A DNA stretch of 58,462 bases, filler included, from Dugesia japonica (Eukaryota): NCBI GenBank assembly GCA_001938525.1. It is 5 parts of 5 records of this genome, joined end to end, with 100 filler letters (N's around TTAATTAATTAA, not from the genome) between each part and the next. Parts side by side here need not be neighbours in the genome. Positions count along the whole stretch, not along the records: positions 39,796 to 58,462 come from MQRL01645809.1; 4 more parts are not named here. One strand, 5' to 3'. Positions within the stretch are counted from its first letter, which is position 1, and each line of letters starts with the position of its first letter. This document shows, one piece after another, positions 45,187 to 45,639 of this stretch. The translations under genes were made by a program, and so were the position numbers. The notes under the pieces were generated by a model. It ran no database searches. It was not told the DNA's origin and was given only the letters and a program-made list of their open reading frames with translations.

Positions 45187-45639
45187 GTGTCACAGGAAAG
45201 ATATCACGAAAATTCAACGGATGACGACATGCCCACAGAAGTAGTAATACGGCAACTATTGTTAATGCTATATCCAGAGCTAAAGATATGGATTGATAAA
45301 TTTCAACTATCGGATAGCCTCAGACAACTAGCAAAGGAAATAGAAGCAGCCCTCAAGAAATTCACCGCTACTAAAGGAACTGGTCAGAGTACAAGGGACA
45401 ACCTAGAAGGAGTAATGGATGAGTTGCTACAGGATTCGCCAACGAAAGAAAGGATAGTAGTATCGATAGCCCACTTAATCAATCAAACACATCTATCAAT
45501 TGCTAGAAGCAAGCCATCAAAAAACTTCATTCTTAGTAAATTACCGATAGTAGATCTAATGCAAAACAAAATCGTACCATTATTAAAGCAGCAAGGAGGT
45601 TGGAAAAAATTTATTGAGACCATATGCCCTAAAACATAA
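45187..45639 (+). CDS. Bcl-2-family fold domain within the polyprotein
   Basis: BH3-like LRQLAKEIE (45319), BH1-like VMDELLQDSPTKERIV (cf. ELF.DG.NWGRIV), BH2-like LLKQQGGWKKF (cf. WI..QGGW..F) in canonical order and spacing. Confidence 0.75.
   Translation: MSQERYHENSTDDDMPTEVVIRQLLLMLYPELKIWIDKFQLSDSLRQLAKEIEAALKKFTATKGTGQSTRDNLEGVMDELLQDSPTKERIVVSIAHLINQTHLSIARSKPSKNFILSKLPIVDLMQNKIVPLLKQQGGWKKFIETICPKT

Follow-up and report, generated by a model that had tools for sequence, protein, structure and literature searches.

Introduction

Giant gypsy-like LTR retroelements of planarians go under the names Burro and GYPSM1, for which Grohme 2018 and Jurka 2007 are reportedly the works cited. The Burro section of PMC6431247 describes elements with a retrotrans_gag domain, two or three CCHC knuckles, a BCL2-like motif, env, and protease; the env gene is kin to mononegavirus fusion glycoproteins and lies between BCL2 and protease, in frame between gag and pol. 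The same section reports a dUTPase-like domain between protease (PR) and reverse transcriptase (RT), a BIR domain, tandem repeats, and thousands of copies. Intact elements carry Gag, BCL2, Env, and Pol as one ORF, and decaying fragments with stops and frameshifts occur in one species; the MATH domain differs between species, and the accessory set of Burro1 is given as MATH, Ubi/SUMO, and ankyrin (PMC6431247). PMC13465017, citing Lee 2026, states that a BIR-RING protein of Burro1 shields stem cells from caspase-mediated death, and links the Burro1 IAP to stem-cell survival and regeneration. BURRO1 expression and the AT-rich host genome are covered in PMC8532177 and PMC11410931.

Here, we analyzed a stretch of 58,462 nucleotides (filler included) from Dugesia japonica, made of five parts of assembly GCA_001938525.1 joined end to end and referred to as the window; positions 39,796 to 58,462 come from MQRL01645809.1. 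On balance, we favor a reading in which a decayed, high-copy, giant gypsy-type element of Burro order encodes a divergent Bcl-2-like domain directly ahead of its Env signal sequence; in intact copies this domain would likely be tethered to a membrane and suppress host cell death. A BCL2-like domain before an in-frame env is already described for Burro (PMC6431247). Since the domain and its position have both been published, our finding is mostly a re-discovery of Burro. Its added value lies in sequence evidence for a Bcl-2/signal/Env fusion kept across families only 27% alike, and in a testable idea for how the Bcl-2-like domain gets localized. No test of the function of the Burro Bcl-2 domain was found in the accessible literature.

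Results and Discussion

Anatomy of the element

The element measures at least 16 kb from the LTR end to near the window end. Its features outside the Bcl-2/Env region are as follows:

41851..41943 (+), probable 3' end of the 5' LTR; end common to a second copy
41954..41971 (+), primer-binding site; one perfect match to an 18-nt pattern, against 0 in 100 shuffles
42629..43053 (+), three tandem leader copies of about 135-140 nt each
44059..44868 (+), gag, capsid part; Pfam Retrotrans_gag E 0.0077, below cut-off
44836..45013 (+), nucleocapsid with three CCHC-type knuckles, from translation; zf-CCHC E 0.00013
48259..49026 (+), two aspartic-protease-like stretches with DTG motifs; gag-asp_proteas E 1.3e-11
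49278..49496 (+), dUTPase-like domain, after the protease-like stretches and ahead of RT; PF00692 E 0.00052, under the cut-off
49587..50817 (+), RT and RNase H, spread over two frames; RVT_1 E 4e-21 and 7e-07, RT_RNaseH E 8e-37
51187..52506 (+), integrase (H2C2 and core) with one internal stop; E 1.3e-11 and 1.2e-13
55682..56884 (+), intronless IAP gene; BIR 55961-56119 (E 3.7e-16), RING 56729-56857 (zf-C3HC4_3 E 1.4e-12)
56961..57728 (+), accessory ORF, coiled-coil-like by eye, from translation

The primer-binding site is presumably of the tRNA-Pro type. The second copy of the LTR end, near 10000-10093 (-), is about 85% alike; it aligns up to the CTCA at 41943, then diverges, and it adjoins an N gap. 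The window contains no 3' LTR, and the element runs past the window end. Two GC-richer ORFs (40926-41345 and 41554-41832, +) lie within the likely 5' LTR and gave no convincing Pfam match. From about 42000 to the window end the sequence is 34-39% GC with a strong A skew; the flanks are 20-33% GC, which agrees with the >70% A/T given in PMC11410931.

This copy carries many stops and frame changes. Knuckle 1 is split by a frame change, knuckle 3 is without its first Cys, and a stop at 56678-56680 separates BIR from RING. The IAP gene matches the B-IAP reported for Burro1 and is flanked by the accessory ORF and by a second coiled-coil-like ORF (55089-55403, +). The accessory ORF had no Pfam match, and the two coiled-coil-like ORFs may correspond to the "Smc" motif mentioned for Burro. 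After the integrase, 52999-54781 (+) holds broken ORFs that encode several hydrophobic stretches, a segment with Cys, a stalk rich in Thr, a transmembrane segment, and proline motifs resembling PPPV/PPSY. It looks like a second small membrane glycoprotein, with no Pfam match under E 0.02.

As in Burro, gag with CCHC knuckles is combined with the gypsy order PR-RT-RH-IN, a BCL2-like motif followed by a mononegavirus-type env lies between gag and pol, and a dUTPase-like domain (here below the Pfam cut-off) separates PR from RT; a BIR (IAP) gene, tandem repeats, high copy number, and an AT-rich host are likewise common to both. Several differences were observed, however. Between the last knuckle and the Bcl-2 Met there are only about 215 nt, which leaves no space for the MATH or Ubi/SUMO domain of Burro1, and none of MATH, Ubi/SUMO, ankyrin, or midasin appeared among 36 window segments scanned with Pfam. 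Gag to integrase spans about 8.5 kb, compared with a 4,873-aa ORF1 in Burro, and the Burro section of PMC6431247 mentions no pair of protease-like stretches such as that found here. The element has the domain order of planarian Burro; its comparison with the named Burro families is at the level of published descriptions.

When 43500-58400 was compared with two DNA runs, 20161 and 29369 contig records were recovered, mostly 80-95% alike and covering 30 of 30 bins. In both runs the depth over the Bcl-2 segment (two bins, with 6087 and 14351 in one run) matched the spread of values seen for gag, env, and pol, and the IAP region was covered by many contig pieces. The element is thus one degenerate copy within a large repeat family, of which the Bcl-2 segment is a regular part.

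The Bcl-2-like domain

A stop-to-stop frame of 153 aa (45178-45639, +; first Met at 45229) is closed by a TAA at 45637-45639; we call its translation the window protein. The sole relative found, P0003, is 27% identical to it. The features of this region and of the adjoining Env are:

45229..45636 (+), Bcl-2-like domain, first Met to stop
45319-45354 (+), doubtful BH3-like motif, candidate only
45421-45459 (+), BH1-like motif, by alignment to Bcl-xL
45589-45612 (+), BH2-like motif, by alignment to Bcl-xL
45637..45639 (+), TAA breaking the Bcl-2/Env frame in the window copy; no stop at the matching site of P0003
45745..45795 (+), hydrophobic internal signal sequence and candidate tail anchor, by hydropathy; kept in P0003
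45796..48105 (+), Env, a mononegavirus/chuvirus-type fusion glycoprotein with cytoplasmic tail, by Pfam PF24664
47446-47502 (+), Env transmembrane segment, within the Env frame

The two proteins align with a score of 144, compared with a maximum of 66 in 2000 shuffles. PF00452 (Bcl-2) is the top Pfam match of the window protein (E 0.002, 19.1 bits, profile positions 11-100) and among the top two of P0003 (E 0.012, 16.5 bits); in this search, which had been proposed as a check on the domain, both scores stay below the curated cut-off of 31.4 bits. At E<=10, a profile built from the two sequences gave 62 PDB matches; 60 of these are listed, and every one of the 60 belongs to the Bcl-2 family. 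Its best match was to Bcl-xL (E 7.2e-5), and the matches are mostly variants of this single protein, with the African swine fever virus (ASFV) Bcl-2 homolog also represented. Searched singly against the PDB, P0003 retrieved 54 Bcl-2 family members out of 54 (best E 0.056), and the window protein matched no Bcl-2 chain. By Atlas language-model features the window protein scored 0.92, with 212-214 of 256 features common to poxvirus, cellular, and adenovirus Bcl-2 clusters; the best cluster was poxvirus Bcl-2-like, with PF06227 on 23% of its members. Residues 15-190 of P0003 gave no Bcl-2 lead in Atlas (best 0.81).

Structure prediction, also proposed as a check, did not recover the helical bundle: the two AlphaFold models are of low confidence (pLDDT 58.9 and 50.6) and reach a TM of about 0.2-0.3 to Bcl-xL. 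Foldseek nevertheless put Bcl-2 proteins first for both.

The sub-threshold Pfam scores, the lack of a fold match from the models, and the blank Atlas result for P0003 are what one would expect if the region were an unrelated helical Env leader that resembles Bcl-2 by chance. We consider this very improbable, because two sequences only 27% alike both score to Bcl-2, their joint profile reaches E 7e-5, the Atlas value for the window protein is high, Foldseek ranks Bcl-2 proteins first even for poor models, and the Burro section of PMC6431247 places a BCL2-like motif at the same position. The Bcl-2 homology originally proposed for 45187..45639 is thus upheld, and similarity over BH1-BH2 is shown, at the level of sequence, to be real and beyond chance.

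BH3-, BH1-, and BH2-like motifs had been predicted in this order. The BH1 and BH2 regions do align to Bcl-xL, in order, at the correct spacing, and with one gap. The BH3-like motif is doubtful: the best alignment to PDB sequences does not reach the candidate, its conservation in P0003 is poor, and it is without the Gly-Asp pair that forms part of the BH3 consensus. Opposite the NWGR of Bcl-xL stands TKER in the window protein, as predicted, and NRDK in P0003. The BH1 Gly is replaced by Glu and Asp, respectively, and the BH1 Arg by Lys in P0003. The NWGR signature is missing from many viral Bcl-2 members too. Given the loss of the BH1 Gly, the anti-apoptotic function of the domain is putative.

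The same substitutions, which put an acidic residue in place of Gly in both sequences, would suit a Bcl-2 fold that does not bind BH3 peptides and instead blocks innate-immune or stress signaling, as the poxvirus Bcl-2-like proteins A46, A52, B14, and K7 do. The weak BH3 and the best Atlas cluster point the same way. Such a role appears unlikely to us, since the sequence matches are to Bcl-xL and the ASFV homolog, and the IAP in the same element points to cell-death control. We retain suppression of cell death as the preferred function.

The domain resembles cellular Bcl-xL/Bcl-2 in its alignment from BH1 through helices 5 and 6 to BH2 and in the hydrophobic stretch after BH2. It differs from them in the lost NWGR, the doubtful BH3, the absence of introns, and the viral glycoprotein that follows the hydrophobic stretch. 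Being short, divergent, intronless, and part of a mobile genome, it is also like ASFV A179L, adenovirus E1B 19K, and the poxvirus Bcl-2-like proteins. Those are stand-alone genes of DNA viruses, however, whereas the domain in the window is fused to Env inside a retroelement.

Continuity with Gag and Env

The domain had been described as embedded in the polyprotein between nucleocapsid and Env. Its position and the Env side of this claim are borne out. On the Gag side the window copy is broken: a different frame, which stops at 45053, encodes the last two knuckles, and the Bcl-2 frame has upstream stops at 45106 and 45175, so that a fusion to Gag is not visible in this copy and is taken from the published description of Burro (PMC6431247). 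P0003 starts at a Met about 20 residues ahead of its Bcl-2-like domain; this may be a true start or the choice of the gene caller.

On the other side, the Bcl-2 frame runs past the TAA into the Env signal peptide, as had been proposed. With stops read through, the same frame leads from a linker to the hydrophobic stretch at 45745-45783, then through SEA/ILAY to the Env glycoprotein, which matches PF24664 (Monjiviricetes_fusion) at E 5.7e-88. The stops that break the Bcl-2/Env frame are at 45637, 45949, and 47548; the last is absent from the contigs covering its site (37 and 44 contigs, from 40 of 3646 rows). In P0003 a single open frame runs from the Bcl-2-like domain through the hydrophobic stretch into the beginning of the fusion protein (PF24664, E 6.8e-5). 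Because P0003 joins all three in one ORF, the Bcl-2/signal/Env fusion is conserved between distant families, and the TAA at 45637 therefore most likely reflects decay of the window copy. This copy is unable to make a membrane-tethered Bcl-2 product.

A candidate tail anchor

The signal sequence has a mean hydropathy of 1.52 over 19 residues, with a short hydrophobic core; a putative signal-peptidase site after SEA was placed by eye. The BH2 Trp and the hydrophobic stretch lie 28 residues apart in P0003, compared with about 25 in Bcl-xL and 48 in the window copy. A HMMER alignment with full-length Bcl-xL reaches its transmembrane tail, which falls opposite the signal sequence, and scores about 4 bits above tail-less constructs; a gain of this size is obtainable with any hydrophobic stretch. 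To judge from the spacing in P0003, it is plausible that the signal peptide could serve as a tail anchor for the Bcl-2 domain.

We propose that Gag-NC-Bcl-2 would be made in the cytosol, after which the internal signal sequence would enter the ER and pass the Env ectodomain into the lumen, and the Env transmembrane segment would bring the chain back to the cytosol for protease-Pol. Were signal peptidase to cut after SEA and the element's protease to cut upstream, the Bcl-2 domain would remain on the cytosolic side of the ER, with the former signal sequence as its anchor. Together with the IAP, it could then keep expressing cells alive. A cytosolic domain whose C-terminus is formed by the signal sequence of the following glycoprotein is also found in the flavivirus capsid-prM signal, HCV core, the foamy-virus Env leader, and the MMTV Env/Rem signal peptide. 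The domain studied here would resemble these signal-anchored precursors in being cytosolic and ending in the Env signal sequence, but it would be a host-derived death regulator rather than a capsid or RNA-export protein.

HCV core, a viral signal-anchored protein, is released by signal peptide peptidase, a precedent for an outcome in which the signal sequence serves Env translocation only and the Bcl-2-like domain, cut loose by the element's protease or within the membrane, ends up in the cytosol (or virion) without being lastingly anchored. The short hydrophobic core and the varying linker (48 versus 28 residues) are compatible with such release. We regard it as quite unlikely, since the hydrophobic stretch of P0003 sits where the Bcl-xL tail does, and the linkers of the two sequences share no conserved cleavage motif.

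Retention on the membrane would carry a further, more tentative possibility that we find somewhat doubtful: in Burro-type elements one hydrophobic segment may be used twice, as the translocation signal of Env, a captured viral fusion protein, and then, once cleaved, as the tail anchor of the captured Bcl-2, so that each Env made would leave one anti-apoptotic protein on the ER. If this is true, the dual-use segment and the IAP would give a retroelement a block of cell death at two levels that is coupled to Env load. The anchor idea, if correct, would mean a retroelement Bcl-2 working like those of DNA viruses, and a signal peptide with dual use. The idea was not found in the literature searched, at the level of titles, or in the Burro section of PMC6431247; Grohme 2018 and Lee 2026 may contain it.

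Other features of the window

Outside the element, a Mariner/Tc1-type transposase is encoded at 34786-35427 (-; Transposase_1 E 3.7e-22). Inverted matches of 44 nt at 34600-34642 and 35870-35912 are the likely terminal inverted repeats of this Mariner/Tc1-type element, which is about 1.3 kb long. A direct duplication of 832 nt at 17321-19034 (99.5% identity, 50-N gap between the copies) is probably an assembly artefact. At 20485-20766 lies a MITE-like inverted repeat with 118-nt arms that are 92% complementary and separated by a 46-nt spacer; a related arm is present at 23962-24062.
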